Source of the DNA: an uncultured Spirochaetota bacterium
GTDB lineage: Bacteria > Spirochaetota > UBA4802 > UBA5550
Assembly: GCA_963827275.1 (NCBI GenBank)
Contig: CAWHAA010000004.1
Coordinates: 512,001 to 576,000, forward strand
Length of the DNA stretch: 64,000 nucleotides
Reading direction: 5' to 3'
In this document: positions 582-23,578 of the stretch, in pieces
How positions within the stretch are numbered: position 1 is the first letter of the stretch
How the letters are laid out: every line of letters begins with the position of its first letter
Position numbers and translations under genes: made by a program
The notes under the pieces: generated by a model
What the model saw: the letters and a program-made list of their open reading frames with translations, nothing else
Database searches by the model: none
What the model was told of the DNA's origin: nothing

Positions 582-637
582 TTTTTACTCTGACCCCTCC
601 CGGGGATATTGAAAAGTAGAATTTTACTCTGACCCCC
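582..637 (+). repeat. Two tandem copies of the dispersed TTACTCTGACCCC motif
   Basis: tttttactctgacccc at 582-597 and ttttactctgaccccc at 622-637. Confidence 0.9.
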
Positions 638-666
638 TTTGCGGGAATATTTAACAGGCAAAGTGT

Positions 667-1929
667 ATGAAGAACGTTGGATTCATATCGACAAGAATAT
701 CTGGCACTGACGGAGTAAGCCATGAGATCGAAAAATGGGCCGCCGTGCTTGAGAAGAATGGCCTGTCCTGCTCCTATTGCGCCGGGGAAGTCGATCGGCC
801 ACGGGAACGCTGTCATGTTATCGATGAAGCCCATTTCAGGCACCCGGACATCGACACTATTAACCGGAGCGTATTTGGAAAAACAATCAGGCCGGAGAAG
901 ATAACCGACCTTATCCATGTGTTATCCGCACACTTGAAAAGCGAACTATCAAACTATATTCGGCGTTTTGATGTCGATTGTATAATAGCCGAAAATGCGC
1001 TTGCCATTCCAATGAATATCCCTTTAGGGATAGCGTTGACAGAGCTGGTTGCAGAGACCGGTATTCCGGTTATAGCCCATCACCATGACTTTGCGTGGGA
1101 GCGTGAACGATTCCTGGTCAATGCCGCTGGTGACTACTTGCAGATGTGCTTTCCGCCTGTACTGCCCTCCGTGCTCCATGTGGTAATAAATTCGCTCGCG
1201 CGGAGGTCTCTTGCGCATCGTCGGGGCGTGACAAGCACCGTTATTCCCAATACCATTGATTACGCCAATCCACCCAAACCGGCTGATCCCGGGGCAATTA
1301 AAGGGGTCAGAGTAAATGCGGGAGTGTCCGATGGTGAAATTTTTGTTCTCCAGCCCACACGCGTGGTGCCGCGCAAATGCATTGAGCGCTCAATTGACCT
1401 TGTGAGTGGACTTGCCGGCGCGGGCAAAAGGCTTGTAATCTCACATCCCTCCGGCGATGAGGGTGATGAGTACTATACACAATTGAAGGAATACGCGAAT
1501 ATGCGCCAGGTAAGTCTGGTCAGCATAGAATCGGTGGTATCGCCGGGCCGGTCGGTGTCAGAGCAACGGCCGTATACCATCGGTGAGGTATATCAGGCCG
1601 CTGATCTTGTTACATATCCTTCGGCGTATGAGGGATTCGGGAACGCCTTCCTTGAGGCAATTTATTTCAGGAAGCCAATTTTAATGAATCGCTACCCGAT
1701 TTTCATAGCTGACATTGAGCCAAAAGGTTTTGAGTTATGTCTTATAAATGGGTTTGTTACCGTTGATGTGATCAGGTATGTAGAGCGAATTCTTTCAGAT
1801 CCGGATGCTCGTAAGAAGATGGTAGATAAAAATTATAGTATAGCGAGCGAGTGTTTTTCTTATCAAAGGCTTGAAGATCTTTTAATGGGTGTGGTGGGCT
1901 GCCTCAGACCTCGATCTCCTTGCAGATGA
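667..1929 (+). CDS. Glycosyltransferase family 4 (GT-B; mannosylglucosylglycerate synthase-like)
   Basis: 420 aa with N-terminal DGVSHEIEKW, HHHDF, QPTRVVPRK and the GT4 signature YPSAYEGFGNAFLEA. Confidence 0.85.
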   Translation: MKNVGFISTRISGTDGVSHEIEKWAAVLEKNGLSCSYCAGEVDRPRERCHVIDEAHFRHPDIDTINRSVFGKTIRPEKITDLIHVLSAHLKSELSNYIRRFDVDCIIAENALAIPMNIPLGIALTELVAETGIPVIAHHHDFAWERERFLVNAAGDYLQMCFPPVLPSVLHVVINSLARRSLAHRRGVTSTVIPNTIDYANPPKPADPGAIKGVRVNAGVSDGEIFVLQPTRVVPRKCIERSIDLVSGLAGAGKRLVISHPSGDEGDEYYTQLKEYANMRQVSLVSIESVVSPGRSVSEQRPYTIGEVYQAADLVTYPSAYEGFGNAFLEAIYFRKPILMNRYPIFIADIEPKGFELCLINGFVTVDVIRYVERILSDPDARKKMVDKNYSIASECFSYQRLEDLLMGVVGCLRPRSPCR

Positions 1930-2632
1930 TCATTTCCGAGTCTTCTTCCTCCGGTCGAACTCGGTAGAGTATGCCATTTCTATCTGCTATTAAACTACGC
2001 GCTTGCAAGAAATTGCGAAATTCAGATTTGACACCGCAAACCTTGACGATGACCGCATTCGCCATCGCTGCACCCCGGACATAAATATCAAGATCACGCT
2101 TGAATTTTTCATCCGCAGATTCCTCTCTCCTTGGTGAAAAAGTAGGGGCAAATATTAGGTGAGTTCCCTGCTCGCGCATGAAATGAAAAGCATCGTCTTC
2201 AAATACATCGGCGCAGATAATCACTCCAAAAGTAATTCCATGTGCACTGAATACCTGATATAAGTCTCCTGGTGTTATCTTGCCCACTTCAGCAAAAAAG
2301 AGTCGTTTTTTACGATAACTACCCAATAGGATGCCATTATGAAACACAAAACAGGTATTGTAAGTTACCCCATTTGCAAGTTCTGGCATTGTCCCACCGA
2401 TAACAACGGTTGACAGTTCCTTGGATAATTTTGATATTCGCTGCAATTGACGTTTTTGGTTGTGGGGCGTTTGGTTCTGTGTGCCCAGAGCAGTGTTTAC
2501 GAAAAAATATTCGGGGAAACATATAAAGTGTGGCTTGAAACTTCGAAACAGGCTGGTGTCAGAGTGAGTTATAGGGACTCCAAGCGGTTTTTGAGATATT
2601 ATAATTCGAAGTTTCATGACTACGTTTCCCAT
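1904..2632 (-). CDS. Carbon-nitrogen hydrolase (nitrilase superfamily)
   Basis: Catalytic triad motifs FPEYF (Glu), YRKK (Lys) and IICAD (Cys). Confidence 0.85.
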   Translation of the reverse strand: MGNVVMKLRIIISQKPLGVPITHSDTSLFRSFKPHFICFPEYFFVNTALGTQNQTPHNQKRQLQRISKLSKELSTVVIGGTMPELANGVTYNTCFVFHNGILLGSYRKKRLFFAEVGKITPGDLYQVFSAHGITFGVIICADVFEDDAFHFMREQGTHLIFAPTFSPRREESADEKFKRDLDIYVRGAAMANAVIVKVCGVKSEFRNFLQARSLIADRNGILYRVRPEEEDSEMIICKEIEV

Positions 2633-2673
2633 GCAACTAGTAATCTTTTATTTAATAATATCAAGAGATTTTA

Positions 2674-2685
2674 GTGTCAGAGTAA
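2674..2685 (-). repeat. TTACTCTGACAC motif copy downstream of the RAYT gene
   Basis: gtgtcagagtaa on the + strand. Confidence 0.75.
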
Positions 2686-2848
2686 CATTATTTTAGTACT
2701 GGAATAGCATAGTAGCAAAAATATCTAGTAATCTGGGATCTATGGACTTTAAAGATAATCAGAACTGATTTGAATTTTAAGGAGAGAAGGCTTAATAAAA
2801 TAAGCTAAATATTTGTACTTCTGGAATTCCAACTGTTGCGATAACCAA

Positions 2849-3448
2849 TTACCCAAACAGGCTTTCCGGGAAGATTCGCTTTCTATACCTTTCTTCGTAT
2901 TCAAGAAATTTTCCGACCCGTTCCTCGAAGGTAGCCCCCAGCTTTACAAAATATTCATGCAGGGTGATGGTTACCGGCGGAATGAATTCCTTGCTCAAAT
3001 AGCAGCGGATAGACCCATACTTGTAATCTCGGGGATCTGCGACAGTTTTGCTTTTTACCGGATTATAGGCCATATAAAGCAATATTACGAAAAACGTCGA
3101 AACCGGGTCGTCAGTAAGTTCAATAATGGTATCGCTGAAGCGCTCATTCCAGAAGGGGCCAATCCTGCCCATGATCCGGTTATATCGCCGTGCAAATTGT
3201 GACTTGATGAACTGCATGATACGAGAAATGGACTCGCCGCCATCAAGCGTACGGATAAGAAAATGGAAATGATTGGCCATGAGGGTATAGTTGATCAGCT
3301 CAAAATGGTATTTTTCAAGCGCCAGGTCTAAGACAAAAAGCATCAAGTCTTTCATCTCATCAGAATGCATGAGGTGTTTTTTCTCGATGCAGCGTGACAT
3401 GGTGTGATAGGTATGTTCCGGCAGGCAGTTCCGTTGTTTTCGCGGCAT
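2849..3448 (-). mobile_element. REP-associated tyrosine transposase (RAYT)-like HUH/Y1 transposase
   Basis: MPRKQR...TYHTMSR N-terminus, HUH motif NHFH, FWNERF, catalytic-Tyr segment YMAYNPVK and DYKYGS. aaggagg RBS upstream. No tnpB nearby. Confidence 0.88.
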
Positions 3449-3531
3449 GGCGTCCTCCTTTGCTTGTGGGATGTCTTGCTTGCGTTTGCTGTATATACGA
3501 ATGGGAGGCCGCCTTCTGGTAATAATTTTAT

Positions 3532-3547
3532 GGGGTCAGAGTAAAAA
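3532..3547 (-). repeat. TTTTTACTCTGACCCC motif copy upstream of the RAYT gene
   Basis: ggggtcagagtaaaaa, the exact reverse complement of 582-597. Confidence 0.9.
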
Positions 3548-3567
3548 AGTTAAATATAAAAATAAAT

Positions 3568-3639
3568 TTCATTCCAAGACTCTTTGCCGTTTATTCCCTC
3601 CCACGTAGCTTTCATTCCACAAAACGTAGCATTCATTCC
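3568..3639. promoter_or_regulatory. Four helically phased TT(C/T)ATTCC direct repeats in the divergent RAYT/sigma promoter region
   Basis: Copies end at 3575, 3597, 3618 and 3639 (periods 22, 21, 21). The last two extend to acgtagcWttcattcc. Confidence 0.5.
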
Positions 3640-3766
3640 TCTTGGCTTGCGTATTTTTAAAAGATTCGGTATTAATTATTACAACAATATGCTTCCTTTG
3701 TTCTGGTCCCGGGATGGCCGGCATGGAAGGCGTATTGTGATTTTATTGTTATGGTGAGGAGGGAAT

Positions 3767-4321
3767 ATGTCAGAATTAAATTATGCCGATGCCGGATTTG
3801 ATGAGCAATTTTCCATTAATTATCGAAAGTTTTCTCTGGCGGTAGTGAGGTTCCTGAAAAAAATCATCTATGACAGAGACATCTGCGAGGAACTGTGTCA
3901 GGATGTATTTCTCAAAGTATACGAAAGAAAAGTTCGGCTTGATCCGGATGCGCCTCAGACGCTGAATTATTTATTTACCATGGCAAAGAATATGGCCATA
4001 GATTATCTGCGGCGCAGAAGGTCCGAAGAAGACAAATTGAAGTATTTGCGCCTTGATGAAGCGCACATGGACCGCCAATTTTATGAAAATATTGAAAACA
4101 TATGTCTGCGCGGGGAGATTATCTCTACTTTAAGGGATACGATTGATTCTTTTCCTCAAAAACAACGGACTCTATTTATCGCTAAGAATTTATTCAATAT
4201 ATCAAAAGCCACACTATCCAAAGACAGCGGCATTTCTTTGTATCTATTGAGGCAGATGGAGGGTGAAATCGTTCGTAAGATAAAAAGCAATCTCGGGCAT
4301 TTCTTTGGATATAATGATTAA
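3767..4321 (+). CDS. ECF-type RNA polymerase sigma-70 factor
   Basis: Region 2 motifs EELCQDVFLKV and YLFTMAKNMAIDYLRR, with region 4 after IDSFPQKQR. gaggaggg RBS. Confidence 0.85.
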   Translation: MSELNYADAGFDEQFSINYRKFSLAVVRFLKKIIYDRDICEELCQDVFLKVYERKVRLDPDAPQTLNYLFTMAKNMAIDYLRRRRSEEDKLKYLRLDEAHMDRQFYENIENICLRGEIISTLRDTIDSFPQKQRTLFIAKNLFNISKATLSKDSGISLYLLRQMEGEIVRKIKSNLGHFFGYND

Positions 4322-4498
4322 CAGAATAATCTTGACAGGAAAAACATAAAAAAGATAAAGAAAAAATTCGAGAACCGGGACTCCGCGTCCGTGGCGCGCG
4401 ACGGCGGTACGTCCGTCTATCTATTTAAGAAGATAGAGCGTGAGTTCAACCGGCGGGTATGGGACTCCCTATGGCACTATTTTTCCGGCGCAGAATAA
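4322..4498 (+). pseudogene. Startless remnant of a paralogous sigma factor C-terminus (region 4), in frame behind the sigma stop codon
   Basis: Hand translation gives ...NRDSASVARDGGTSVYLFKKIEREFNRRVWDSLWHYFSGAE*, which aligns gap-free with the last 41 aa of the upstream sigma. Confidence 0.65.
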
Positions 4499-4502
4499 TG
4501 TA

Positions 4503-4546
4503 TTGACAAAAAAAGAGACCGGGATATGTTGACCGAGCGCTCGTTC
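4503..4546 (+). promoter_or_regulatory. Sigma70-like promoter and palindromic operator upstream of tetR
   Basis: TTGACA at 4503-4508, 16-bp spacer, TATGTT at 4525-4530, then the palindrome cgagcgctcg. Confidence 0.45.
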
Positions 4547-4575
4547 GGTATTATATTATAATCATAAGGGGGGTC

Positions 4576-5256
4576 ATGGCGCCCGCGCAAGGGGCTCCGG
4601 AAGCCATGGAAACAAAAAAAAGGGGGAAAAACGTACCGACACAGATCAAGAACCAGGACCTGGTCGCGAAGCGACGGCGGCAGATTATAGACGCGGCCGT
4701 GCGTCTGTTCATAGAAAAAGGTTTTCACAAAACGACCACCCGTCAGATCGCCGCCGCGGCCGGTCTGCCGATCGGCTCCATGTATGAATACGTGGCCTCA
4801 AAGGAGGACATCCTCTACCTTGTCTGCGACGCGATACACGCCGAGGTCGAGAAGGGCGTGATCGAAGCCATGGCCCGGGCCAGCAAGGGGAAGAACATCC
4901 TGGCCGGGGCTATCCGGGAATACTTCCTGGTGAGCGACCGTATGAGCGACCACATCCTGCTTATCTATCAGGAGACGCAGTCACTCCCCCGCCAGTGGCG
5001 CCGCAAGGTGCTGGAGAACGAGGTACGCATTACCGGGATCTTCATTACCCTGATCAAGCTCCTGATATCCTCCGGCGATCTGCCGCCGCGCGGTGACCGC
5101 GCAGTAGAAGTGGCGGCACACAATATCGCTGTGCTGGGACACATGTGGACCTTCAGGCGATGGTTCTTCACCCGGCACTACAGCATCGAGGAATATATCA
5201 AACTCCAGACCGAGTTCATCCTTGGATCGTATAAAATGAAGGAAAAGAAACAATAA
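4576..5256 (+). CDS. TetR/AcrR family transcriptional regulator
   Basis: N-terminal HTH IIDAAVRLFIEKGFHKTTTRQIAAAAG...MYEYVASKEDIL, directly upstream of icmF. Alternative start at 4606. Confidence 0.9.
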   Translation: MAPAQGAPEAMETKKRGKNVPTQIKNQDLVAKRRRQIIDAAVRLFIEKGFHKTTTRQIAAAAGLPIGSMYEYVASKEDILYLVCDAIHAEVEKGVIEAMARASKGKNILAGAIREYFLVSDRMSDHILLIYQETQSLPRQWRRKVLENEVRITGIFITLIKLLISSGDLPPRGDRAVEVAAHNIAVLGHMWTFRRWFFTRHYSIEEYIKLQTEFILGSYKMKEKKQ

Positions 5257-5271
5257 AAAGACTTGATAAAA

Positions 5272-5287
5272 AATGGAGCGCTTCATT
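5272..5287. promoter_or_regulatory. Candidate TetR operator upstream of icmF
   Basis: Quasi-palindrome aatggagcgcttcatt shares the gagcgct core with the site upstream of tetR and follows TTGATA at 5263. Confidence 0.4.
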
Positions 5288-5322
5288 AATCAACGGGATT
5301 ACGCAGGGAGAATATTCAGGCC

Positions 5323-8300
5323 ATGAAACAAACGACCGCAACCAAAACTGAAAAAAGCCCTTCGGGGGCATCATCACATGTGCACGGGATATACAGGCCG
5401 AAGAACAGGGTCCGGGTCGTAACCGCGACGTCTCTCTTTGATGGCCATGACGTGGCCATCAATATGTTCAGGAGGATCCTTCAGGAAACAGGCGTTGAGG
5501 TGATTCATCTGGGTCACAACCGATCCGTCGATGAGATCGTAAGCGCAGCAATAGAAGAGGATGTGCAGGGGATTGCCGTTTCCTGTTATCAGGGCGGGCA
5601 CGTCGAATTTTTCAAATATATAATCGATCTCCTGAAAGAGCGGGGGGGCCCGCATATCCGGGTCTTCGGCGGCGGGGGCGGCGTGATCGTACCGGAGGAA
5701 GCGAGCGAGCTCGAGGAATACGGCGTGGCAAAAATCTATACGCCTGAACATGGCGCGCAGATGGGCCTTCAGGGCATTATCAACCACCTTGTAAGTGAAA
5801 TTGATTTTCCGATTCCGGACGCTGTCGCGACTGATATCTCTCTACTTTCATATGATAATAAAGCTGCGATCGCCCGGCTCATCACCATGGCGGAGACGGT
5901 TGATCCCCGTGGTTCTGATAATTACGCGTCGATTCGCCAGCTTGTCCGCAAGGCTGCCGGTGAAAGAAAGATGCCGGTCATCGGGATCTCCGGCACCGGT
6001 GGCGCAGGCAAGTCGTCAATAATCGACGAGATCATTGTGCGCTTTCTGCATGATTTTAGTGATCTGCGCGCGGCGGTGCTCTGCAGCGATCCTGCAAAAC
6101 GCAGGAGCGGTGGTGCGCTGCTGGGCGATCGTATCCGGATGAACGCGATCACGAATCCCCGTGTATATATGCGCTCGTTTGCCGCCGGCCAATCCAATAT
6201 TGATTTTTCTGAATCGCTGTCCGATGCGCTCGCCGTTGTAAGGGCGGCCGGCTTTGATCTCGCGATAGCGGAGACGGCGGGCGTGGGCCAGGGAAGCGCC
6301 GGTCTTACCGATCTCGCCGATGTGTCGGTCTACGTGATGACCAGCGAGTACGGCGCGGCATCGCAGCTCGAAAAAATCACCATGCTCGATTATGCCGATG
6401 TGGTTATCGTGAATAAATTCGAAAAAGAGGGCGCGGATGATGCCCTCCGCGACGTACGGAAACAGGTCCAGAGGAACCACAAGGCATTCGACAGGTCGCC
6501 TGATGAGATGCCGGTATTCGGTACCATCGCTTCCCGGTTTAACGACGACGGCCTTACCGCCCTCTATCATTTTCTGCTCGATTGTATCAATGAGAAAACA
6601 GGGAGCAACCTGGTTTCGGGCCTGCCGCGACCGGATCGGCGGACATCGTCATCCAAGACAATAATAATTCCGTCCCGTCGCACCCGCTACCTGTCAGAGA
6701 TAGCCGATACGGTGCGTGACTACCATAAACGCACCGTGGAGCAGGCGGATATCGTGCGCGCCATATGGCACCTGCGGGAATCTGCGACGCGGCTGGCGGA
6801 ACGGGGCGATGCCGCTGGTGCGGTTGAACGGCTTACCGAGGAAGCGGCGCGCATGGAACCGCTGATCGAAAGCGAGACAACGTATCTCCTGTACCAGTGG
6901 GACGTCATCAGGGAGGATTACCGGAAGGATGAGCTCGTGTATCTCGTGCGCGACCAGGAGGTCAGGACGCCCCTGTATTACGAGTCCCTTTCCGGCAAGA
7001 AGATCCCCAAAATCGCCCTCCCGCGTTTCACCGACCCTGGCGAGGTGTATCGCTGGATGCGCGAGGAAAATATCCCCGGCTGGTTTCCCTATACGGCGGG
7101 CGTATTCCCGTTGAAGCGGATGAACGAGGACCCCACCCGCATGTTCGCGGGCGAGGGAAACCCGGAGCGGACCAACGCGCGCTTCAAGCTCCTGTCCGCC
7201 AATTTCGCAGCGAAGCGCCTCAGCACCGCATTTGACTCGGTCACGCTCTATGGCCGTGATCCTGAGACAAGGCCGGATGTCTACGGCAAGGTGGGGACTT
7301 CCGGCGTGAGCGTGTGTACGCTTGACGATGTGAAGGTCCTCTACGGCGGGTTCGACCTTACAGCGCCCGCGACCTCGGTTTCAATGACCGTAAACGGCCC
7401 GGCGCCGATGATGCTCGCAATGTTCCTGAACGCGGCGATTGACCAGCAGGAAGAACGGTTCGCGTCTCAGACGGGGCGGCAGCCGAATGCGGAAGAGCAT
7501 GCAAGGATACGCACCGATGTGCTTTCGAACGTACGTGGAACGGTGCAGGCCGATATATTAAAAGAAGACCAGGGCCAGAATACCTGTATTTTTTCTATCG
7601 ACTTTGCCCTCAAGATGATGGGAGATATACAGCAGTTTTTTATTGATAATAACGTGCGCAATCTTTACTCCGTGTCGATATCCGGCTATCATATCGCAGA
7701 GGCGGGAGCAAACCCGATCACACAGCTGGCCTTCACGCTGGCCAACGGATTCACCTATGTGGAATACTATCTCTCGCGCGGCATGCCCATTGACAGCTTT
7801 GCGCCGAACCTCTCCTTTTTCTTCTCAAACGGCATGGACCCGGAATACACGGTCATCGGTCGGGTGGCGCGTCGTATATGGGCAGTTGCCATGAGGGAGA
7901 AATACCGTGCCGCGCCGCGGTCGCAGATGCTCAAATATCACATCCAGACATCAGGCCGGTCGCTTCACAGCCAGGAGATACAGTTTAACGATATCCGTAC
8001 CACGCTGCAGGCACTCTGCGCGGTGTACGATAACTGCAATAGCCTCCATACCAATGCCTATGACGAGGCCATCACGACACCCAGCCGCGAATCGGTACGC
8101 CGTGCTCTGGCGATACAGCAGATCATCAACAGGGAATGGGGTCTGGCGCGGAACGAAAACCCGGAGCAGGGGAGCTTTATCGTTGAAGAGCTCACCAGTC
8201 TTGTCGAGGAAGCGGTGCTCGCGGAATTCGACCGCATCACGGAGCGGGGCGGGGTGCTCGGCGCGATGGAAAAGGGCTACCAGCGGAGCCAGATACAGGA

Positions 8301-8640
8301 AGAATCGATGCACTATGAACACCTGAAGCACTCCGGGGGGCTCCCCATCGTGGGGGTGAACGCGTTCCTTGACGGCGAGACGTCTCATGGCGGCGAGATA
8401 GCCACCGTTGAGCTCGCTCGCGCCACCGAGGAAGAGAAGCGCTCACAGCTCCGGCGCCTGGACGAATTTCACCGCCGCAATGCACATGAAGCGCCGCGTG
8501 CGCTGAAAAAACTTATGGAGACGGCATTGTCGGGAGGAAACGTTTTTGCAGAAATGATGAACACCGTCCGCTACTGCTCCATAGGCCAGATCACGAATGC
8601 GCTTTACTCTGTGGGCGGCCAGTACCGGAGAAGCATGTAG
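5323..8640 (+). CDS. icmF: Fused isobutyryl-CoA mutase/MeaI GTPase (IcmF)
   Basis: 1105 aa: B12-binding domain (FDGHD, SCYQGGH), P-loop GTGGAGKSS with ETAGVGQ and NKFE, and a mutase barrel (EDPTRMFAGEG, KYHIQTSGRSLH, GGQYRRSM). Confidence 0.95.
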   Translation: MKQTTATKTEKSPSGASSHVHGIYRPKNRVRVVTATSLFDGHDVAINMFRRILQETGVEVIHLGHNRSVDEIVSAAIEEDVQGIAVSCYQGGHVEFFKYIIDLLKERGGPHIRVFGGGGGVIVPEEASELEEYGVAKIYTPEHGAQMGLQGIINHLVSEIDFPIPDAVATDISLLSYDNKAAIARLITMAETVDPRGSDNYASIRQLVRKAAGERKMPVIGISGTGGAGKSSIIDEIIVRFLHDFSDLRAAVLCSDPAKRRSGGALLGDRIRMNAITNPRVYMRSFAAGQSNIDFSESLSDALAVVRAAGFDLAIAETAGVGQGSAGLTDLADVSVYVMTSEYGAASQLEKITMLDYADVVIVNKFEKEGADDALRDVRKQVQRNHKAFDRSPDEMPVFGTIASRFNDDGLTALYHFLLDCINEKTGSNLVSGLPRPDRRTSSSKTIIIPSRRTRYLSEIADTVRDYHKRTVEQADIVRAIWHLRESATRLAERGDAAGAVERLTEEAARMEPLIESETTYLLYQWDVIREDYRKDELVYLVRDQEVRTPLYYESLSGKKIPKIALPRFTDPGEVYRWMREENIPGWFPYTAGVFPLKRMNEDPTRMFAGEGNPERTNARFKLLSANFAAKRLSTAFDSVTLYGRDPETRPDVYGKVGTSGVSVCTLDDVKVLYGGFDLTAPATSVSMTVNGPAPMMLAMFLNAAIDQQEERFASQTGRQPNAEEHARIRTDVLSNVRGTVQADILKEDQGQNTCIFSIDFALKMMGDIQQFFIDNNVRNLYSVSISGYHIAEAGANPITQLAFTLANGFTYVEYYLSRGMPIDSFAPNLSFFFSNGMDPEYTVIGRVARRIWAVAMREKYRAAPRSQMLKYHIQTSGRSLHSQEIQFNDIRTTLQALCAVYDNCNSLHTNAYDEAITTPSRESVRRALAIQQIINREWGLARNENPEQGSFIVEELTSLVEEAVLAEFDRITERGGVLGAMEKGYQRSQIQEESMHYEHLKHSGGLPIVGVNAFLDGETSHGGEIATVELARATEEEKRSQLRRLDEFHRRNAHEAPRALKKLMETALSGGNVFAEMMNTVRYCSIGQITNALYSVGGQYRRSM

Positions 8641-8723
8641 TCATATCCCTCTGTTTTTATGGTAAAATTCTCTTCCTGCTGTGAATTAAACTGAAGCTGG
8701 CCAGCCTGATTTGATAATAAGAC

Positions 8724-8814
8724 TGCTCTGACACCTCGTTTTCAGAATATTTTACTCTGACCCCGGTTTCCCATTTTCAATTTACTCTGACACCAAATAT
8801 TTACTCTGACCCCA
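8724..8814 (+). repeat. Cluster of four TT(A/G)CTCTGAC(C/A)CC motif copies
   Basis: Copies at 8724 (tgctctgacacc), 8750, 8781 and 8800, with unrelated short spacers. The last overlaps the sulfatase stop codon. Confidence 0.9.
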
Positions 8815-13086: not shown

Positions 13087-13147
13087 CGAAATCCGCTCCT
13101 CCCGGCGCCGGGGTTCGGATCGATGTCAGCAGTATGCTCCGCGGTTG

Positions 13148-13531: not shown

Positions 13532-13657
13532 GGTCCTTCTCCTGGCGGCGCTTATATTGTAAACAATCATGCAGCCGTTTATTGATAAAAAGCAAGAGTT
13601 TTTTCGATCGGGCCGGATAGCGTGTGATCGTCTGTCGTGTGCGCGCGGCGGGTCCTT

Positions 13658-14821: not shown

Positions 14822-15102
14822 ACCGGCATCTCCCTTGATAATCCTGATAATAATACAGGAAATTTTATGTCAGGGCAAATATTTTTTGTCAAAATACCTC
14901 TTTTGCTCAGGTAATTCGCAGATTGACGTGGGCCGGGGTGCTTTTTTAAAAATACAATGCCCCCGTAACCGGATCCTGATCGGACATAAGGTGCCAGCGG
15001 GAAGTCGCATGGCGACATTCAGGTCTGAAAATTTCTTATTGAAAAAAATAGGGCATTTTATAAGGTGTGCCCTAACTTTAAAAAGGGCACAAACAAGAAA
15101 AC

Positions 15103-15327
15103 ATGACCAAAACAGCGGTAAAGCATTCTGTTAAGATAAATTATGAAATGTGCAAGGGGTGCGGCCTCTGCATCGCCTATTGCACGAAAAAAGTCCTCAG
15201 AGAGTCGGAGCACCTGAACAAGTCGGGCTATCATTATGCCGAGCCGGACGATGCGGCCCAGTGCTCCGGGTGCATGATCTGCACGATGGTCTGCCCGGAG
15301 GTCGTGATAGAGGTATATGATGAGTAA
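15103..15327 (+). CDS. 2x[4Fe-4S] ferredoxin, delta subunit of 2-oxoacid oxidoreductase
   Basis: CKGCGLCIAYC and CSGCMICTMVCP. Confidence 0.9.
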   Translation: MTKTAVKHSVKINYEMCKGCGLCIAYCTKKVLRESEHLNKSGYHYAEPDDAAQCSGCMICTMVCPEVVIEVYDE

Positions 15328-16387: not shown

Positions 16388-17136
16388 AACTGAAAAACGC
16401 ATGGCCCCGGTATTATAAAAAGGACGTGGTCACCCACTACTGCCCCGGGTGCGGCCACGGCATCGTGCACCGCATCGTCGCCGAGGTGCTGGAGGAGATG
16501 GACCTTGGCAAGCGCGCCATCTGCGTGAACCCTGCCGGGTGCGCGGTGCTCGCTTATCTCTATTTTGATTTCGACGTGATCGAATCCGCCCACGGCCGGG
16601 GCACGGCCATCGCCACCGGCGTCAAGCGCTCGCGGCCCGACCTGTTCGTGTTCACCTACCAGGGCGACGGGGACCTCTCCGCCATCGGCACCGCCGAGAC
16701 CATACACTCTGCCAACCGGGGCGAGAACATCTGCGTTATTTTCATCAACAACGCGGTGTACGGCATGACCGGCGGGCAGCTCGCCCCCACCTCGCTCATC
16801 AATATGAAGACGACCACCACGCCCGCGGGGCGTGACCCGAAATATGACGGCTATCCCCTTCACATAACTGACGTTGTGGCGCAGTTCCCCGGCGTTGTCT
16901 ACGCCGAACGGGTGGCCGTGGACGGCCCTGCCGGCATCAGGAAGACGAAGAAAGCGATCGCCAACGCCTTTCAAACGCAGGTTGACGGGCTCGGGTATTC
17001 GATCATCGAAGTCCTGTCACCCTGCCCGACGAACTGGAAGCTTTCCCCGGTGGATTCCTTCAAGTGGATCACCGAGGTGATGGCGAAGGAATATCCTACG
17101 GGCGTGCTGACCGACAAGAGGAGCAAGAAGGAATAA
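16384..17136 (+). CDS. 2-oxoacid:ferredoxin oxidoreductase beta (TPP-binding) subunit
   Basis: HYCPGCGHG, YQGDGDL...NNAVYGMTGGQ and SPCPTNW. Confidence 0.92.
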   Translation: MKLKNAWPRYYKKDVVTHYCPGCGHGIVHRIVAEVLEEMDLGKRAICVNPAGCAVLAYLYFDFDVIESAHGRGTAIATGVKRSRPDLFVFTYQGDGDLSAIGTAETIHSANRGENICVIFINNAVYGMTGGQLAPTSLINMKTTTTPAGRDPKYDGYPLHITDVVAQFPGVVYAERVAVDGPAGIRKTKKAIANAFQTQVDGLGYSIIEVLSPCPTNWKLSPVDSFKWITEVMAKEYPTGVLTDKRSKKE

Positions 17137-17137
17137 T

Positions 17138-17677
17138 ATGCTGGTAAGAATATTAGCGGCCGGTTCCGGGGGGCAGGGGGTCCTGACCATCGGCAATACC
17201 CTCGGTAACGCGGCGATGATGGATGACTACTTCGTGACCTACCTCCCATCGTACGGCGCGGCCATGCGGGGCGGAACGGCCAACTGCACGCTCTGCATTT
17301 CGGACGAGGAGGTGGCGTCGCCCGTTGCGTCTGCGCCGGACATCCTCGTGGCAATGAACCAGCCGTCTCTCATGGCCTTCATCACCAGGCTCGAGGCGGG
17401 CGGCCAGCTCCTCTATAACGCTGATCTTGTCGATTTTGTGCCCGAGCGGGGCGACATTGACATGTTCGCGGCGCCGGTGAACCGCCTGGGCCGCGAGCTG
17501 GGGAGCGAGCGTTCGGCCAACATGGTCATGCTCGGGGCCCTGGTAAAGATGACGGATATAATCAAGATCGATACGATATTCAAGAGCGTCGAGATGATGA
17601 TGGGGTCTAAAAAGAAGCTTGCCGAATCGAGCATCCATGCTATAAAGGCCGGATACGACGGGTTTCCGTTTAAATGA
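17138..17677 (+). CDS. 2-oxoacid:ferredoxin oxidoreductase gamma subunit
   Basis: AGSGGQGV, PSYGAAMRGGTANC and NMVMLGA. Confidence 0.92.
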   Translation: MLVRILAAGSGGQGVLTIGNTLGNAAMMDDYFVTYLPSYGAAMRGGTANCTLCISDEEVASPVASAPDILVAMNQPSLMAFITRLEAGGQLLYNADLVDFVPERGDIDMFAAPVNRLGRELGSERSANMVMLGALVKMTDIIKIDTIFKSVEMMMGSKKKLAESSIHAIKAGYDGFPFK

Positions 17678-17715
17678 CCTCCGGCGATTAAAGCATTATT
17701 AAAAGGATACACACC

Positions 17716-18144
17716 ATGTCAATAACCCAGGTCTCAATCGCGGTTGACAACGCACCCGGCAGCCTCTACCGGGCGAGCTCGATCCTCGAGAAAGAGCAGA
17801 TAAACATTAAGGCCATCATGGCGGCCACTGATCTGAGCCCCGTGCAGGTGCATATGGTCGTTGACGATCCGGACAGGGCGGTGAAAGTGCTGGAGATGAA
17901 CCGTTTCACGGTTACCACCAAAGAGGTCATCGCCGTGGCCGCTCCCGATCATCCCGGCGGGCTCAACGCCATCCTCAGGCCGCTCATCGAGGCGAAGGTC
18001 AACATCGACGCCATGTATCCCTTTATCTATCTCAAGGGCGATGAGGCGGTCCTGATCCTTGATGTTGATAAGATAAAGGAAGCCAGGGAGGTGCTGAAAA
18101 AGCACTGGGTGAAGACTTACGGCGGCGAGATATACAAGTCATAG
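17716..18144 (+). CDS. Tandem ACT-domain amino-acid-binding protein
   Basis: Two ACT repeats: DNAPGSL...INI and PDHPGGL...VNI. Confidence 0.85.
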   Translation: MSITQVSIAVDNAPGSLYRASSILEKEQINIKAIMAATDLSPVQVHMVVDDPDRAVKVLEMNRFTVTTKEVIAVAAPDHPGGLNAILRPLIEAKVNIDAMYPFIYLKGDEAVLILDVDKIKEAREVLKKHWVKTYGGEIYKS

Positions 18145-18153
18145 GGCGGGTTG

Positions 18154-18288
18154 CCGATAGTTATCGGTACTGTTTAAGTATTAATTTACTCTGACCCTGC
18201 GACGTCACACATTAATTCCGATAGTTATCGGTAATAAAGTTACTCTGACCCCGCAATCACATGCAAGAATCCCGATAGTTATCGGTAA
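18154..18288 (+). repeat. Mosaic repeat: three CCGATAGTTATCGG hairpins alternating with two TTACTCTGACCC motifs
   Basis: Hairpins at 18154, 18218 and 18272, motifs at 18186 and 18240. Confidence 0.9.
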
Positions 18289-18345
18289 AAAGGCAGAAAA
18301 CGCTGGTTCTATCTTCCCGGTCTGTCCCGCTCCACCGACCGCAAT

Positions 18346-20196
18346 TCAGCGTATTATTTCGTTTCTGTTCCGCAGGGATTCAATCTCTCGGTTGATCATG
18401 GCCTTGATTTCCCGGTCCTTTCCCCCGCGCATGTATCCGAGCATCTCGATGATGTTCCTGGCGGACAGGACCCGCGGGACAAACACGTAATCGGCCCCTT
18501 CCGCGTACATCTTCAGGGCCCGCTCTATGCTCTCGGCGGTAACGATTATTTTCGCCTCCGGGCAGATTTCTTTCATATGCCTGATGATCCTCAGGTTATC
18601 GGTCCCAACGAGTATCGTGTCAGGTATGGTTGATATGACGATTTTCGCGTCATGGATGCCCGCGTGATGCAATGTGTCAGGGTGGCTGATGTCCCCGTAC
18701 ACGACCTTGATCCCCATGCTCTGGAGTGACTCGTGTATCTCCGGATTGAAATCCACGACTATTATCTTGTTCTTCAGCGGGATCCCGTCTGCGTCGTTGC
18801 CGGTTTCAATTATATCATGCAGCAGGGAGCTTGCGGTGCGGAAGAATCCGAGTATGGCGATCTCCCTGCTGTGTGCCGCTCCATCCTTCTCTTCCGCGGA
18901 TTTGATCTCCCTGAATCCGATTTTTTTCAGCAGGGACGCCCCGCCTTTCTGGATGGCGTCGCTGTATTTAATCATGTAGGTCGATACGATCGAGGTGATG
19001 ACGAAGACGAATATTATTATCGACATCGTGTCGCGTGAAATATGGCCGGCCGTCACGCCGAGGGCGGCGATGACCAGCGAGAATTCGCTGATCTGGGCGA
19101 GGTTGATGGGCGTCAGGAGGCTTACGCGAAGGCCGTTTTTCAATGAATAGAGTACGGGGAAGACGGCCAGGAACCGGGACGCTATTAAAAACAGCGATAC
19201 AACCGCGGCCGTTGCGAGTATCGCGGTATTATCGAGCGGGTTGGGTATCTGCATGCCCAGCGACACGAAAAAGAGCGTGACGAAAAAATCCCTGATATTG
19301 ACCACCTTCGCAATAACGTCGAGGTTGTAGGGAAAGGTTGATATCGAAACGCCCGCGATCAGCGCCCCCATTTCGAGGGAGAGGTTCAGGAAATTCGCCG
19401 CGCCGCAGACCAGGAAGCACCATCCAAGCGAGGAAACAAGCACAAGCTCCGGGACCTTTGCGACCGACTTGAATACCCGGGGTAATATATATTTGCTGAT
19501 CAGCATGCTGACTGCGACGAGGAGCAATCCCCTGCCGAAGGAGAGCAGAATCTGGACAATGTCGGGGTTTGCCAGGTTCGGCTGTATGCCCAGAAGAAGT
19601 ATTGCCCAGAGGTCCTGGAACACGAGGATCCCCAGCGTAAGCCTGCCGGCCAGCGTGTCCAGCTCGAATTTTCCATACAGAAGCTTGACGACTATCGCGG
19701 TACTGCTGAGGCCGCAGCACGTGGCCAGGTAAAGGAGGTCATAGGTGCCCGTGCCCAGAGTGTAACCCATCAGGAGGAAAAATCCAATGCCGAGGGCCAG
19801 CGTTAAAGGGAATTGGGTGAGTCCACCGATGATGAGTGATTTTCCCGATTCTTTCAGCTTCTTAATGTCTATCTCGAGTCCGATCAGGAAAAGGAGCAGT
19901 ATGAGGCCGAAATGGGATATTGTTTCGATGTCATGAGCGTTCTGTATGAGCCCCAACCCCATGGCGGGCCCGATCACTATTCCGGCTGCCAGGTATGCCA
20001 GGAGGAGCGGCTGCTTGAGAAGGTGGCCGAGGTACGCCATGACAGTAGCCGCAAGTATTGCTATGCCGACGCCGCTGATCATGGTGTCGCCCCTGCCGCC
20101 CTCCGATTCGGCTGCGGTCAGTGATGCAGCCAGGGTCAGTAGCATTATTATTGTATATAAAAGGCAATAACGGATCGGTTCTGATGTTGTCCTCAT
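18346..20196 (-). CDS. CPA2/Kef-type cation:proton antiporter with C-terminal TrkA-N (RCK) domain
   Basis: LLFLIGLE, SSTAIVVKLL, GILVFQD, AQISEFS and C-terminal VVYGDISHPDTLHHAG. Confidence 0.9.
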   Translation of the reverse strand: MRTTSEPIRYCLLYTIIMLLTLAASLTAAESEGGRGDTMISGVGIAILAATVMAYLGHLLKQPLLLAYLAAGIVIGPAMGLGLIQNAHDIETISHFGLILLLFLIGLEIDIKKLKESGKSLIIGGLTQFPLTLALGIGFFLLMGYTLGTGTYDLLYLATCCGLSSTAIVVKLLYGKFELDTLAGRLTLGILVFQDLWAILLLGIQPNLANPDIVQILLSFGRGLLLVAVSMLISKYILPRVFKSVAKVPELVLVSSLGWCFLVCGAANFLNLSLEMGALIAGVSISTFPYNLDVIAKVVNIRDFFVTLFFVSLGMQIPNPLDNTAILATAAVVSLFLIASRFLAVFPVLYSLKNGLRVSLLTPINLAQISEFSLVIAALGVTAGHISRDTMSIIIFVFVITSIVSTYMIKYSDAIQKGGASLLKKIGFREIKSAEEKDGAAHSREIAILGFFRTASSLLHDIIETGNDADGIPLKNKIIVVDFNPEIHESLQSMGIKVVYGDISHPDTLHHAGIHDAKIVISTIPDTILVGTDNLRIIRHMKEICPEAKIIVTAESIERALKMYAEGADYVFVPRVLSARNIIEMLGYMRGGKDREIKAMINREIESLRNRNEIIR

Positions 20197-20205
20197 GGTG
20201 CCTCC

Positions 20206-20616
20206 TCAATGCAGGTTCGGGTTTTCTTTTTGCTTCATCAGAAATGACTTGAATCGTTCAGATTGCACTATGGCCCTGCAGGTAAAGAGCGAAATGGTAA
20301 AGGCCAGGTAGAAATACCCGAAAAAAACCTGTGTTGCTGCGATGATCTTGCCGCCCATGGTCGCCGGTATTATATCACCGTATCCCACGGTCGTCTGGGA
20401 TGTTATGCTGAAGTAAAAATGGTCCAGGTAGGAGGTCGTGTGGCTTAGTGCCGGCTCGCAGGTGTTGTATTTCAGCGATGGGGCCCCCTCAAAAAAGGGG
20501 AGCATCAGGTAATAGCAGAGTGAATAGATCACCGCTGTGCCGAGATACAAACAGATTACCAGGTATGTGCTCCGGGGATTATTGATGATATTCCACGCAT
20601 TGATCTTCATGGTCAT
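20206..20616 (-). CDS. Minimal two-TM potassium channel (Ion_trans_2)
   Basis: K+ selectivity filter TTVGYGD between two TM helices, with no cytoplasmic gating domain. Confidence 0.85.
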   Translation of the reverse strand: MTMKINAWNIINNPRSTYLVICLYLGTAVIYSLCYYLMLPFFEGAPSLKYNTCEPALSHTTSYLDHFYFSITSQTTVGYGDIIPATMGGKIIAATQVFFGYFYLAFTISLFTCRAIVQSERFKSFLMKQKENPNLH

Positions 20617-20836
20617 GCTTCCTGTTTTGTGGATTGTTTTCTATAGTATCTATCGTCAGGCGGTGAAAAGTGATTAATATACAAAAATAAAATAATAGAC
20701 ATTAATGTCCTGATATATTAATTTGTTTGTATGGCTTCCTTGTGTTAATGAGGAAGGCCATCTTGTCGCAATGTTCTCTTGGTTTTTCATGCAGCCGGTT
20801 CAGGTAATGATTAAAATCAATTACAAAGGAGCAAGC

Positions 20837-21703
20837 ATGCTGCTGCCTCCGCGAAGAATCCTGCTCGCAACAGACCTGAGCGCTCGAAGCGATCGGGCAC
20901 AGGACCGGGCCGTATCGCTCATGAAGATGTGGAATTCCGAGCTTGTGGCCCTCCATGTCCTGGAGGCGCCGAATGAAATCGGCGGAATCGCCCACATCCC
21001 TTTTTTCCCCTATCACAGGCCCAATGACCGGCGCATATTTAAGGCGCGGAATCAATTGCTTGAATCCATTGGCGATATCGGTCCGCGCATAACCGTGCGC
21101 ATCGAGGAAGGCGTGCCGCATGAGGCTATCATCCGGATTTCAGAGGAGGAGGGGTGTGATCTCATCGTCTGCGGCGTCGCGCGCAACGAGGTCCTCGGGC
21201 GCTTCACGCTGGGGAAAACGGCCGATCGTCTCATGCGCAAATCGGACAGGTCTATGCTGGTGGTGACCGAGCGTGTTCTGGCGCCCTACCGGAAAATCGT
21301 GGCAATAACCGACTTGTCGGAAGAATCGAAAAGGGCGATCGAGGTCGCTTCGAACTGGTTTCCCGAGCAGATGCTATCGGTATTGTACGCGTATTCCGCT
21401 CCCCGCTCGTCCTCGGTTGATAATATCGACGACTATCGAGAAAAGATGCGTCAGGTGGCGCAGCGCGATCTCATAAAATTTCTTGATTCGGCTGACGTGG
21501 CCGTTGAACGGCGCGCGCGCATCACTATGCTGGTCGAATTCGGGAAGGCAACAACCCTCATCAATGGCCTGCTTCAATTTTCCGATGTGGGGCTGGTTGT
21601 CGCGGGTCTGCACAGACGCGGTTTTTTATTCGATGCCGTTTTCGACAGTGAGGCAAAGCGCATCATATCCTCCCTTTCCTGTGATGCCTTGATCGTCCGA
21701 TGA
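20837..21703 (+). CDS. Tandem universal stress protein (USP)
   Basis: RRILLATDLS...DLIVCG...LGKTADRLMR plus a second USP domain. ATG 20837 follows aaaggag. Confidence 0.88.
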   Translation: MLLPPRRILLATDLSARSDRAQDRAVSLMKMWNSELVALHVLEAPNEIGGIAHIPFFPYHRPNDRRIFKARNQLLESIGDIGPRITVRIEEGVPHEAIIRISEEEGCDLIVCGVARNEVLGRFTLGKTADRLMRKSDRSMLVVTERVLAPYRKIVAITDLSEESKRAIEVASNWFPEQMLSVLYAYSAPRSSSVDNIDDYREKMRQVAQRDLIKFLDSADVAVERRARITMLVEFGKATTLINGLLQFSDVGLVVAGLHRRGFLFDAVFDSEAKRIISSLSCDALIVR

Positions 21704-21829
21704 AACTGCATGTGGAGTGCTGCTATACGGCCCATGCGTGGGTCTGTGCGCCAGCTGCCGATTGTAACGGTCGTCGGTCCAGGAAGCAATAATACGTTTT
21801 GCCTTTTTGCTGTCACGGATATAATCGGA

Positions 21830-23524
21830 ATGACTATGAACGAATACAATGTATTGATGACATTCGTCGGAAGCCTGGCGGCCGCACTGGTTCTCGGATA
21901 TTTGGCCCAGTGGCTGAAAATATCACCCATCGTCGGCTACCTCCTGGCCGGCATAGCCGTTGGCCCGTTTACTCCCGGCTTCACGGCACAGCAGGCGATT
22001 GCCCATCAGTTCGCGGAAATCGGCGTGATCCTTCTGCTTTTCGGCATAGGGCTGAGGTTCCATCTCCGCGAGCTGGCCGCCGTATGGCGGATCGCGGTGC
22101 CGGGCGCAATAATCCAGAGCGCTTTTTCAACTGCGGTGATGGCGGGCTTGTTGCACCTGCTTGGCTGGAGCTGGAGCTCCGGGGTCGTCCTCGGCCTCGC
22201 GATTTCTGTCGCGAGCACTGTCGTCATGGCCCTTGTGCTTGCGGAGCGGCACGACCTGCACGCGCCCATAGGACACATCGCCATTGGGTGGACGGTCGTT
22301 GAGGACATCCTCACCGTTGCATACCTTCTTCTCCTTCCGATTGTTTTTTCCGGCGATGGCGCTGGCGGCAGGGAGGCGGGATGGGCGCTCGCGATAACCG
22401 CGCTAAAAATTATCGGTTTGGCCGGCTCTGTTGTTGTCCTCGGCCGCTGGGTTATTCCATGGGCGCTGGAACGAATAGCGGTTACCCGTTCGCGTGAATT
22501 GTTTACTCTGTCAGTCCTGGTCATTGCCATGGGCATTGCTGTCGGGTCCTCGAAACTTTTCGGTGTTTCCATGGCCCTAGGGGCTTTTCTTGCGGGACTC
22601 GCGGTCGGCCGATCGGAATTCGCCGCCCGGGCCGGCGGTGATGCCCTGCCGATGCGCGACGCTTTCGCCGTGCTCTTCTTTGTTTCCATCGGTATGATGT
22701 TTGATCCCCGAAGTCTCGTAAACGAGGCGTTGGTCATTGTCGTTGTTCTATCGGTAGTGCTCGTCGGCAAGCCGCTTTCCACCTTGCTTACGGTACGCAT
22801 CCTTGGCAGACCGCTGTCAACAGCAATTCCCGTCGGCGCGGCCCTTTCGCAGGTGGGGGAATTCAGCTTCATTCTCGGGGTCGTCGCCAGGGATCTCAAC
22901 CTGTTGAGTGAAGCCGGCTGGAATGCAATGATAGCCGCGTCAATTATATCAATTGCTCTTAATCCATCAATTTACCGGTTTGCGCGGCGTATCTCTTCAC
23001 GGGCGGCAAAAAGCGTGCCTCCCGCCGGTGAGCGGCCGGCGGTCGATCCCCGGAAGTGCATTCTGGTCGGCTACGGGCCGGTCGGCAAAACCGTGCACCG
23101 CCTCCTGGCCGAACGCGGCGCGGTACTAACGGTAATAGAATTGAATCTTGATACGGTCCGCCGCCTGAAGGCCGAAGGATGCAATGCTCTCTATGGCGAC
23201 GTATTAAGACAGGGGACGCTGGAAGAGGCGGGCATAGCCGAGTCAGGAAGTCTCATTATTTCAGCCGATGTCGATGATGCGGCGGAGATCGTCAGACGGG
23301 CGTGCATTCTGAACAAGGACCTGCGTATTCTCGTGCGGTGCGCGCATCTCCGCGATGTCCCGGCTATCCGGAAAGCGGGGGCGACGGTTGTGGCTGCGGG
23401 TGAAGTTGAAGTGGCGGTTGCGCTTGCCGAAGCGGTTATCGAGGAGCATGGTTTGGATAACGGTGTTATGGCCGTGCGGCGTAAGGACATTCGCAGGGGC
23501 CTGTATGAGCCCTCTTCTGACTGA
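21830..23524 (+). CDS. CPA2 cation:proton antiporter (YbaL/RosB-like) with TrkA-N domain
   Basis: SPIVGYLLAG, AEIGVILLLFGIGL, SVASTVV, SQVGEFSF and ILVGYGPVG. Start at 21830 or 21836. Confidence 0.9.
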   Translation: MTMNEYNVLMTFVGSLAAALVLGYLAQWLKISPIVGYLLAGIAVGPFTPGFTAQQAIAHQFAEIGVILLLFGIGLRFHLRELAAVWRIAVPGAIIQSAFSTAVMAGLLHLLGWSWSSGVVLGLAISVASTVVMALVLAERHDLHAPIGHIAIGWTVVEDILTVAYLLLLPIVFSGDGAGGREAGWALAITALKIIGLAGSVVVLGRWVIPWALERIAVTRSRELFTLSVLVIAMGIAVGSSKLFGVSMALGAFLAGLAVGRSEFAARAGGDALPMRDAFAVLFFVSIGMMFDPRSLVNEALVIVVVLSVVLVGKPLSTLLTVRILGRPLSTAIPVGAALSQVGEFSFILGVVARDLNLLSEAGWNAMIAASIISIALNPSIYRFARRISSRAAKSVPPAGERPAVDPRKCILVGYGPVGKTVHRLLAERGAVLTVIELNLDTVRRLKAEGCNALYGDVLRQGTLEEAGIAESGSLIISADVDDAAEIVRRACILNKDLRILVRCAHLRDVPAIRKAGATVVAAGEVEVAVALAEAVIEEHGLDNGVMAVRRKDIRRGLYEPSSD

Positions 23525-23528
23525 TTAT

Positions 23529-23578
23529 TTACTCTGACTCCCGCAATCACCTGCAATGATACCGATAGTTATCGGTAA
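23529..23578 (+). repeat. Direct-repeat copy of the motif+hairpin unit at 18240-18288
   Basis: ttactctgactcccgcaatcacctgcaatgataccgatagttatcggtaa differs from 18240-18288 by 1 indel and 4 substitutions. Confidence 0.9.

Follow-up and report, generated by a model that had tools for sequence, protein, structure and literature searches.

Sequence signs of a possible slow rewriting of neighbouring DNA around a TIRYT-type Y1/HUH transposase gene

The transposase gene, its motif and its cassette

We analyzed a 64,000-nucleotide (nt) stretch of the genome of an uncultured Spirochaetota bacterium (contig CAWHAA010000004.1, positions 512,001 to 576,000; hereafter the window), in which a gene for a Y1/HUH transposase lies among copies of a 13-nt motif. 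Letter-for-letter, insertion-free copies of this motif within neighbouring genes suggest that the enzyme slowly rewrites the DNA that surrounds it. G, C and L numbers are our handles for genomes, contigs and loci. The parts of the transposase locus, in window coordinates, are as follows.

2673..3544, minus strand: motif-bounded cassette made up of upstream motif, promoter-like stretch, gene, 163-nt spacer and downstream motif; a second copy lies on contig C1
2849..3448, minus strand: Y1/HUH transposase gene, 199 amino acids, TIRYT / TnpA-Y1 subclass 2.1-like, clade A, no distal helix-turn-helix (HTH); PF01797, expect value (E) 3e-10
3532..3544, minus strand: left (upstream) end motif; equivalent position in 27 of 29 clade A loci
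2673..2685, minus strand: right (downstream) end motif, in direct orientation and with T as final base; the C1 copy is identical up to, but not including, this T

A sequence-only reading that preceded this work had described the product of 2849-3448 as a RAYT-like HUH nuclease, and this description was confirmed. Besides its PF01797 match, the protein retains an intact HUH motif (N59-H60-F61-H62) and a catalytic Y125-x3-N129-P130, the pattern of TnpA-Y1 class 2, while its predicted structure (predicted local distance difference test score 90.6) returned E. coli TnpA-REP (4ER8) as the first Foldseek match (E 1.5e-7, template modelling scores 0.62/0.74). The match to NF047646 scored 73.2 bits, below the cut-off of 80, and that to NF033573, a test for IS200/IS605, scored 23 bits against a cut-off of 55. 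Several sources used here (PMC6006769, PMC3733652, PMC5581495, PMC8266576, PMC5027513 and PMC4390886) were available in part, and statements citing them are limited to those parts. Compared with the subclass 2.1 key motifs in Table 1 of PMC6006769 (NH[YF]H, W[EQ]/FQ and a serine motif farther downstream), NHFH is present, W then N are found, and G-S replaces S-S. A distal HTH/DnaA-like C-terminal domain is absent, Pfam giving PF01797 only and the protein stopping at residue 199. The gene and its ends lack the Y-x3-Q motif and subterminal hairpins of IS200/IS605, and the REPtron test revealed neither a GTAG/GTGG-tagged hairpin beside the gene nor a folding signal at its ends. RAYTs had also been called domesticated, which is doubtful for this transposase, as the genome carries five full gene copies, two of them identical.

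The motif proved far more frequent than expected by chance, as had been claimed. The window contains 10 exact copies of TTRCTCTGACMCC against 0.01 expected, and the 4.13-Mb assembly contains 152 against 0.12-0.27 expected under Markov models of order 1-5. Scanning the window with up to two mismatches returned the same 15 copies that had been listed by eye (10 exact and 5 with one mismatch), with none after 23541, in keeping with the earlier limit of ~23.6 kb. The CCC variant, which reads GGGGTCAG on the opposite strand, accounts for 126 of the 152 genome copies; the ACC variant is one base off GGGGWSAS, the consensus carried by TIRYT terminal repeats (Di Nocera et al. 2013, PMC3733652). Copies on both sides of the gene share its orientation, as had been noted (3532 upstream, 2673 and 2555 downstream, all on the gene strand). 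The motif is likewise polar and not a hairpin: the 13 nt form no hairpin of their own, and we found no conserved structure at cassette ends (median z -0.7 to +0.2; 26-27 ends per class).

The pairing of motif and gene recurred among relatives. In a survey of 41 genomes of the order, which include kin that are not independent, the motif was present in 29 of the 31 genomes with a close homolog (E below 1e-40) and in 1 of the 10 without one. We further compared 40 loci from the genus, picked among full-length homolog matches (29 of clade A, 11 of clade B). Clade A genes (56-72% identical) had a motif 75-99 nt upstream in 27 of 29 loci, and their first downstream motif was direct in 26 and inverted in 2 of the 28 loci with enough sequence, the 29th being cut short. 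For clade B (43-48% identical) the first downstream motif was inverted in 9 of 11 loci, and more distant homologs are flanked by motif variants of their own. These results bear out the earlier claim of a cognate relation between the motif and this transposase clade. The 13-mer appears to be the polar end motif of a TIRYT-type Y1/HUH recombinase, and we infer that it serves as the nicking site of the transposase.

The cassette was compared with its second copy and with orthologous sites. Window positions 2674-3567 match C1:83049-83941 at 99.3% (blastn); identity begins a few bases before the upstream motif and ends after base 12 of the downstream motif, and a right end after motif base 12 also occurs in at least three G016 copies. 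In sequencing runs X1 and X5 an 881-nt contig piece covers 2674-3554. The depth of this piece was 1.4-1.6 times that of its flanks in three runs. Two fixed copies should give a ratio of 2, but contig depth is too crude a measure for a conclusion. The gene is multi-copy, and individual sites acquire and lose it. G009 also carries it at the window site. At the C1 site, G001 has a gene of a different lineage and G011 is occupied as well; G004 and G016 have no gene there, and their motif is decayed. The G016 copies L096 and L100 are 99% identical, yet they sit at sites common to other species, and such near-identical cassettes at old shared sites indicate that cassettes are replaced or homogenised in place. 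Empty orthologous sites had a motif within 700 nt in 5 of 18 cases, against 5.4% by chance (p 0.002), and within 300 nt in 2 of 18 (p 0.2). These comparisons show cassettes copied between old sites.

Several observations concern the gene family more widely. A second, unrelated Y1 gene in the genome (G000:C4:639666-640223, L144) is bracketed by arrays of GTAG...CTAC double-foot hairpins, the arrangement of a classical REPtron, and its catalytic region reads YxxxQ, not YxxxNP. At window positions 3450-3530, as at most loci, a T-run is followed ~16-20 nt on by CGTA, a promoter-like arrangement that precedes clade A, clade B and REPtron genes alike; a sigma-70 promoter scan gave matches at chance level only. 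A wide homolog search returned 11,753 matches. In G035 and G040 there were 19 and 24 transposase matches, many of them partial, pointing to insertion-sequence-like expansion in family f6. No relatives of the transposase were found in viral contigs, and viral carriage was rejected.

Motif copies and base composition around the gene

The motif copies outside the cassette ends are distributed as follows.

585..636, plus strand: two intergenic motif copies, 585-597 and 624-636
1303..1315, minus strand: motif copy inside a glycosyltransferase gene, in this genome only; five scored orthologs differ at 6-9 bases, with a gap in 0 of 12
1554..1566, minus strand: motif copy inside the glycosyltransferase gene, common to G009 and absent in 11 other orthologs
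2555..2567, minus strand: motif copy (1 mismatch) inside a nitrilase-family gene, common to G009; absent, gap-free, in four orthologs
8723..8813, plus strand: four-copy motif cluster between convergent genes (8723, 8752, 8782, 8801); the 8801 copy overlaps the sulfatase stop codon
9437..9449, minus strand: motif copy inside a sulfatase-family gene; gap-free against two orthologs, which show 3 and 5 differing bases
18154..18285, plus strand: composite array of three CCGATA(GT)TATCGG hairpins alternating with motifs 18186-18198 and 18240-18252
23529..23575, plus strand: motif copy (1 mismatch), then hairpin

Four of these copies (1303, 1554, 2555 and 9437) lie within protein-coding genes. When the glycosyltransferase gene was aligned with 12 orthologs, the 1303 site was free of gaps and the 1554 site had a one-codon gap in two; of the 11 orthologs lacking the 1554 copy, the other nine aligned gap-free, and the four that were scored differed at 4-5 bases. 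Across all aligned in-gene site bins with a non-carrier ortholog, 24 of 30 had no gap within 12 nt, and three of the six gapped bins belong to a single tandem array. Non-carrier orthologs were on average 5.6 of 13 bases off the consensus, compared with 9.2 for random sequence and 3.6 for background divergence. Coding DNA within 3 kb of clade A genes held 11 perfect copies in 147,874 strand positions, a count that includes shared ancestral copies, against none in matched orthologs, while coding DNA 3-10 kb away held none in 298,976 positions. Within the same 3 kb, two-mismatch sites were enriched over orthologs (8 vs 0), and those with three (38 vs 29) or four (229 vs 254) were not. Three control patterns gave no perfect match in relatives' genes. 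Over 45 loci, motif density fell with growing distance from the gene as 34, 5.7, 4.4, 2.6, 2.1, 0.6 and 0.4 per 10 kb. The codons beneath the motif had 53% amino-acid identity against 71% gene-wide (23 sites). Finally, 46 of 68 copies, a count that takes in cassette ends and repeated pairs, were common to orthologous sites though flank identity was mostly 0.5-0.8.

Taken together, these comparisons show that new copies arise within ~3 kb by replacement of bases at sites with a prior partial resemblance to the motif, and that copies, once present, stay intact between species. The proposal that the motif marks exchanged or rewritten DNA is upheld by the cassette ends and by replacement within genes. 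Of the motif-directed remodelling system as first put forward, the cognate motif and its role as a mark of exchange and rewriting stand, its undescribed character is not supported and its domesticated character is doubtful. Two further observations concern the copies themselves. At G000:C1:81057-81138, 2 kb from the C1 cassette, an in-frame 21-nt tandem motif expansion lies inside a gene. Four sequencing runs differ from the window at 8725 (motif position 3 of the 8723 copy) and 8764 (last base of the 8752 copy), indicating that tolerated motif positions vary between strains.

Copies near a gene also resembled one another in kind. In the eight genomes with both clades, motif position 3 was A in 29 of 44 copies lying 0.4-3.5 kb from clade A genes and in 0 of 20 copies near clade B genes (Fisher p 2e-7, copies not being fully independent). 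In G017, 22 of the 31 genome copies of the CTCTGGCACC variant fall within 5.8 kb round one homolog, inside trpE-like (anthranilate synthase), trpGD-like, PRTase-like and RsmG/SpoU-like genes, and nearly all of these in-gene copies are gap-free against distant orthologs. Around a second G017 homolog, 20 kb hold 16 copies of another variant, with the first variant missing altogether; this second variant is spread more widely (47 genome copies). By this comparison, each enzyme variant is surrounded by its own motif variant, even inside one genome. The most extreme halo that we observed, at G017:C46:16651-22444 (L168), comprises 28 CTCTGGCAC copies round one homolog, 10 of them in one RsmG/SpoU fusion gene.

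The genes beside the transposase are shifted toward adenine and thymine (AT). The measure was guanine-plus-cytosine (GC) content at fourfold sites, and the conclusions rest on ortholog-matched comparisons.

667..1929, plus strand: glycosyltransferase gene, vertically inherited, AT-shifted; fourfold GC 0.53 vs 0.86-0.90 in syntenic orthologs without transposase
1904..2632, minus strand: carbon-nitrogen hydrolase (nitrilase) gene, AT-shifted; fourfold GC 0.39 vs 0.76-0.93
3767..4321, plus strand: ECF-type sigma factor gene, AT-shifted; fourfold GC 0.55 vs 0.70-0.94

The TetR and mutase genes had a fourfold GC of 0.77 vs 0.87-0.94, and values were roughly level farther away. Neighbours were AT-shifted in G009 too, where the gene occupies the same site, and the glycosyltransferase nests within the genus group. 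The GC deficit at clade A loci was -0.19/-0.24 within 1.5 kb and had shrunk to -0.08 at 6-10 kb (17-23 loci per bin), and near values lay below far ones in 10 of 12 independent clade A site clusters (p 0.005) and in 5 of 6 for clade B (p 0.09). The profile was flatter around AT-rich stretches that lack the gene, -0.125 to about -0.09. For 11 of 15 loci in other genera, values close to the gene were below those farther away, genome-level GC differences there being large. As a control, a classical REPtron showed no shift at the one of three loci that was usable. We conclude that neighbouring genes drift to AT. A and T rose alike on both gene orientations, and this strand symmetry rules out strand-specific deamination; lone motif clusters, considered as AT-shifted 'ghost' sites, showed no shift. 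The gene at 5323-8640 is a fused B12-binding / MeaB / acyl-CoA mutase gene by domain search, which we take to be IcmF-like.

A hairpin repeat, not noted in the sequence-only reading, accompanies part of the motif population. Copies 18186, 18240 and 23529 have the imperfect palindrome CCGATA(GT)TATCGG 20-22 nt away. Genome-wide, CCGATA(AC/GT)TATCGG occurs no more than 60 nt from 82 of the 152 copies, mostly at 8-11 nt on either side, forming 42-46-nt units. The hairpin is an independent family: it is found in 28 of the 41 genomes, and G021 (84 hairpins) and G017 (47) have no exact motif. It numbers 145 exact copies in the genome (in the window at 18154-18285, 23562-23575 and 41895-41908) and forms 19-22-nt tandem arrays of its own at C4:712.9k, C5:19.2k and C7:112.7k. 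Lone motifs, with no hairpin partner, lay within 3 kb of transposase genes in 17 of 70 cases, vs 0 of 82 hairpin-paired motifs. At 38 of the 40 transposase loci the hairpin is absent within 3 kb, if a single copy at 672 nt and a distant upstream array are set aside. We considered whether the hairpin is the enzyme's cognate REP, which is ruled out by its near absence beside the genes, by at least five copies in three genomes without a close homolog and by 0-1 copies in eight with one. A partnership with a GIY-YIG (Ssn-like) nuclease was likewise discarded, 12 of 14 PF01541 loci having no hairpin core and two having one each, not bracketing the gene. At G000:C5 ~335.5 kb a single in-gene hairpin copy aligns gap-free to its ortholog at L102, so that the hairpin may, on this one case, also arise in place. 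The hairpin core that recurs every 288 nt at G000:C7:273448-279892 is probably a 96-residue protein repeat.

A proposed mechanism and its alternatives

We propose, with moderate confidence, that the transposase performs cis-acting, enzyme-templated overwriting, in which its end motif would be transferred to nearby near-matches and left over the old bases. The protein would act mostly beside its own gene, binding the motif in transiently single-stranded DNA (ssDNA), nicking it through a 5'-phosphotyrosine and transferring the strand to a nearby near-match. The joint would then be reversed or repaired, or a full insert-then-excise cycle would be completed, leaving the motif in place of the target sequence. 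Within genes, selection would remove frameshifting outcomes, the same nicks would set some cassette ends, repeated gap repair would push synonymous sites to AT, and away from the gene the pre-existing hairpin repeat may be a favoured target. Related enzymes nick ssDNA and join a 5'-phosphotyrosine end to a 3'-OH (PMC8266576), and IS608 uses lagging-strand gaps of ~1.5-2 kb (PMC5027513). A wider proposal, held tentatively and at somewhat less than even confidence, is that TIRYT-type HUH enzymes could be local cis genome editors that copy a 10-13-nt end motif over near-matches within a few kb, including in housekeeping genes, without insertions or deletions (indels), swap motif-bounded cassettes between old sites and alter the local mutation spectrum.

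Several results weigh against overwriting by the enzyme. Non-carrier sites match the motif at 0.26-0.79 per position and reveal no required target core, and the orthologs are just 50-90% identical, which makes the ancestral states approximate. Beyond 1 kb, copies occur on both strands, unlike the strand-specific action of IS200/IS605. G021 has 69 copies of the variant GTGTCTGGCACC and no Y1 gene was found in its assembly, which is 89% complete. (Some GTGTCTGGCACC copies at G021 loci L145-L151 are near hairpins.) G-C swaps and protein divergence are hardly raised near the gene, and the C5, C9 and C10 copies in this genome show only a weak AT shift. Strain differences in run X1, compared from contigs with 40 of 634 difference rows listed, numbered 1 in 2703 nt and 3 in 881 nt near the gene vs 125 in 13,251 nt farther off. 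Along with the strand symmetry of the shift, the last three results also speak against a strong mutator. Present-day hypermutability was rejected, strain differences not being raised near the gene; a search for same-species strains with or without the gene returned none. As for the cassettes, the shared stretch ends at the stop codon in G009 (two sites), G008 L103/L104 and G016 L097, so the motif serves as an end in only some events, and ordinary gene conversion explains the homogenisation that ends at stop codons.

The strongest alternative is a mutation ratchet of the kind proposed for cyanobacterial HIP1 (PMC4390886, section 3.4), in which protein bound to the motif near its gene protects it or steers repair in favour of the strand that carries it, and point mutations climb to the consensus with no template. 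In its favour, sites begin as partial matches and copies are retained; some gains need one synonymous change, the G004 and G016 sites that lack the gene being one base from the carriers G007 and G011, and one gain in the trpE-like gene is purely synonymous. The local AT shift, moreover, shows altered mutation or repair. Against it, perfect copies dominate, and intermediates with three or four mismatches show neither excess nor shortage, the enriched two-mismatch class notwithstanding. The loss of amino-acid identity under the motif also means that a ratchet needs several non-synonymous steps per site. We regard it as unlikely.

Host selection for binding sites, in which a domesticated protein or a host factor needs sites round the gene for autorepression, silencing or chromosome folding, fits the fixed distance of the left motif just upstream of the conserved T-run/CGTA stretch and the strong retention of copies. 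It is hard to reconcile with a multi-copy gene that is gained and lost beside unrelated neighbours, with up to 10 copies in one housekeeping gene, and with halos that are variant-specific within one genome, which a diffusible protein would not explain; we judge it improbable. The idea that nothing was rewritten, and that the low-GC, motif-rich zone arrived with the transposase as an island of foreign DNA, is largely refuted and most improbable: the transposase and spacers are AT-rich and genes beside AT-rich gaps are generally lower in GC (0.74 vs 0.84), but the neighbours are syntenic in five relatives, the glycosyltransferase groups with its genus, and the deficit is graded with distance and larger than beside gene-free AT-rich stretches.

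If enzyme-templated overwriting is correct, with the motif written in place, a mobile gene would have a previously unknown means of recoding host genes, and the enzyme would be a candidate for a small tool for DNA writing. If the wider proposal holds, it would amount to natural short-patch templated DNA writing by a single 200-residue protein and provide the first concrete activity for a RAYT subclass present in ~15% of species. The locus is also a caution that low GC around such a gene does not by itself mark the 'island' as foreign. The locus offers a minimal 13-nt substrate, a junction after base 12, natural pairs of enzyme and motif variants and a halo footprint of ~3 kb; G017 L168 is the best locus for follow-up.

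Relation to known systems

The gene belongs with a described group. TIRYTs correspond to subclass 2.1, in which no REPs occur and in which all 20 TIRYTs placed there have a distal HTH (Quentin et al. 2018, PMC6006769); the subclass is the largest RAYT-like group, found in 14.9% of species (PMC6006769), and equals RAYT Group 1, second only to the IS200-like Group 6 in its number of duplicates (Bertels et al. 2017, PMC5581495). The remodelling system had been presented as a candidate undescribed one, a label that is not supported: the motif core, as GGGGTCAG, fits the published TIRYT terminal consensus GGGGWSAS (PMC3733652, PMC6006769), so the pairing of gene and motif is already known in kind. 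Our literature search, which took in bioRxiv 10.1101/2021.07.10.451892 and was thin on subscription journals, found no direct-repeat TIRYTs, in-place neighbour copies, variant halos or local AT drift, nor, in the TIRYT literature searched, cassette replacement at old sites or an activity test for subclass 2.1; Figure 9 and the non-text supplements of PMC3733652 may list closer repeats. Within that scope, direct-repeat ends, cassette copying between old sites, in-place copies, variant-specific halos and AT drift are new here.

The present system resembles TIRYTs (TIRtrons, subclass 2.1, Group 1) in combining NH[YF]H with YxxxNP, in lacking a GTAG REP, in its GGGGWSAS flank, in the dispersal of its motif as singles, dimers and clusters, and in having more duplicates than other RAYT groups. 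Clade B has the inverted ends of a classical TIRYT in 9 of 11 loci, whereas clade A differs in its direct ends (26 of 28), its 13-nt repeat, its lack of a distal HTH and its length of 199 residues against a median of 238. With REPtrons (RAYT groups 2-3, including E. coli TnpA-REP, 4ER8) the system shares its fold and a cognate repeat that lies both beside the gene and genome-wide; REPtron enzymes cut ssDNA at a CT or CA close to the repeat and carry out strand transfer there (PMC8266576). Unlike REPtrons, it has no GTAG tag and no hairpin in its cognate motif, and while intragenic REPs have been described as in-frame insertions, the in-gene copies here are mostly replacements.

Like IS200/IS605 elements (IS608, ISDra2), the system has a Y1/HUH fold and near-identical copies within genomes, and local action at ssDNA gaps is a plausible parallel; it differs in its YxxxNP in place of YxxxQ, its direct 13-nt ends, its old syntenic sites and its lack of subterminal hairpins and tnpB. 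HIP1 is likewise a short word proposed to arise and persist by biased substitution, not insertion (PMC4390886), but it is an 8-nt palindrome, tied to methyltransferases and spread genome-wide, in contrast to the polar, 13-nt motif concentrated here within 3 kb of a transposase gene. In the prochlorosin-linked TnpA-REP case (bioRxiv 10.1101/2020.03.09.984088), no GGGGWSAS repeats were found, change occurred by indels in one gene family, and its authors note no strong evidence for causation; what it has in common with the present locus is a subclass 2.1 enzyme proposed to diversify neighbouring genes.

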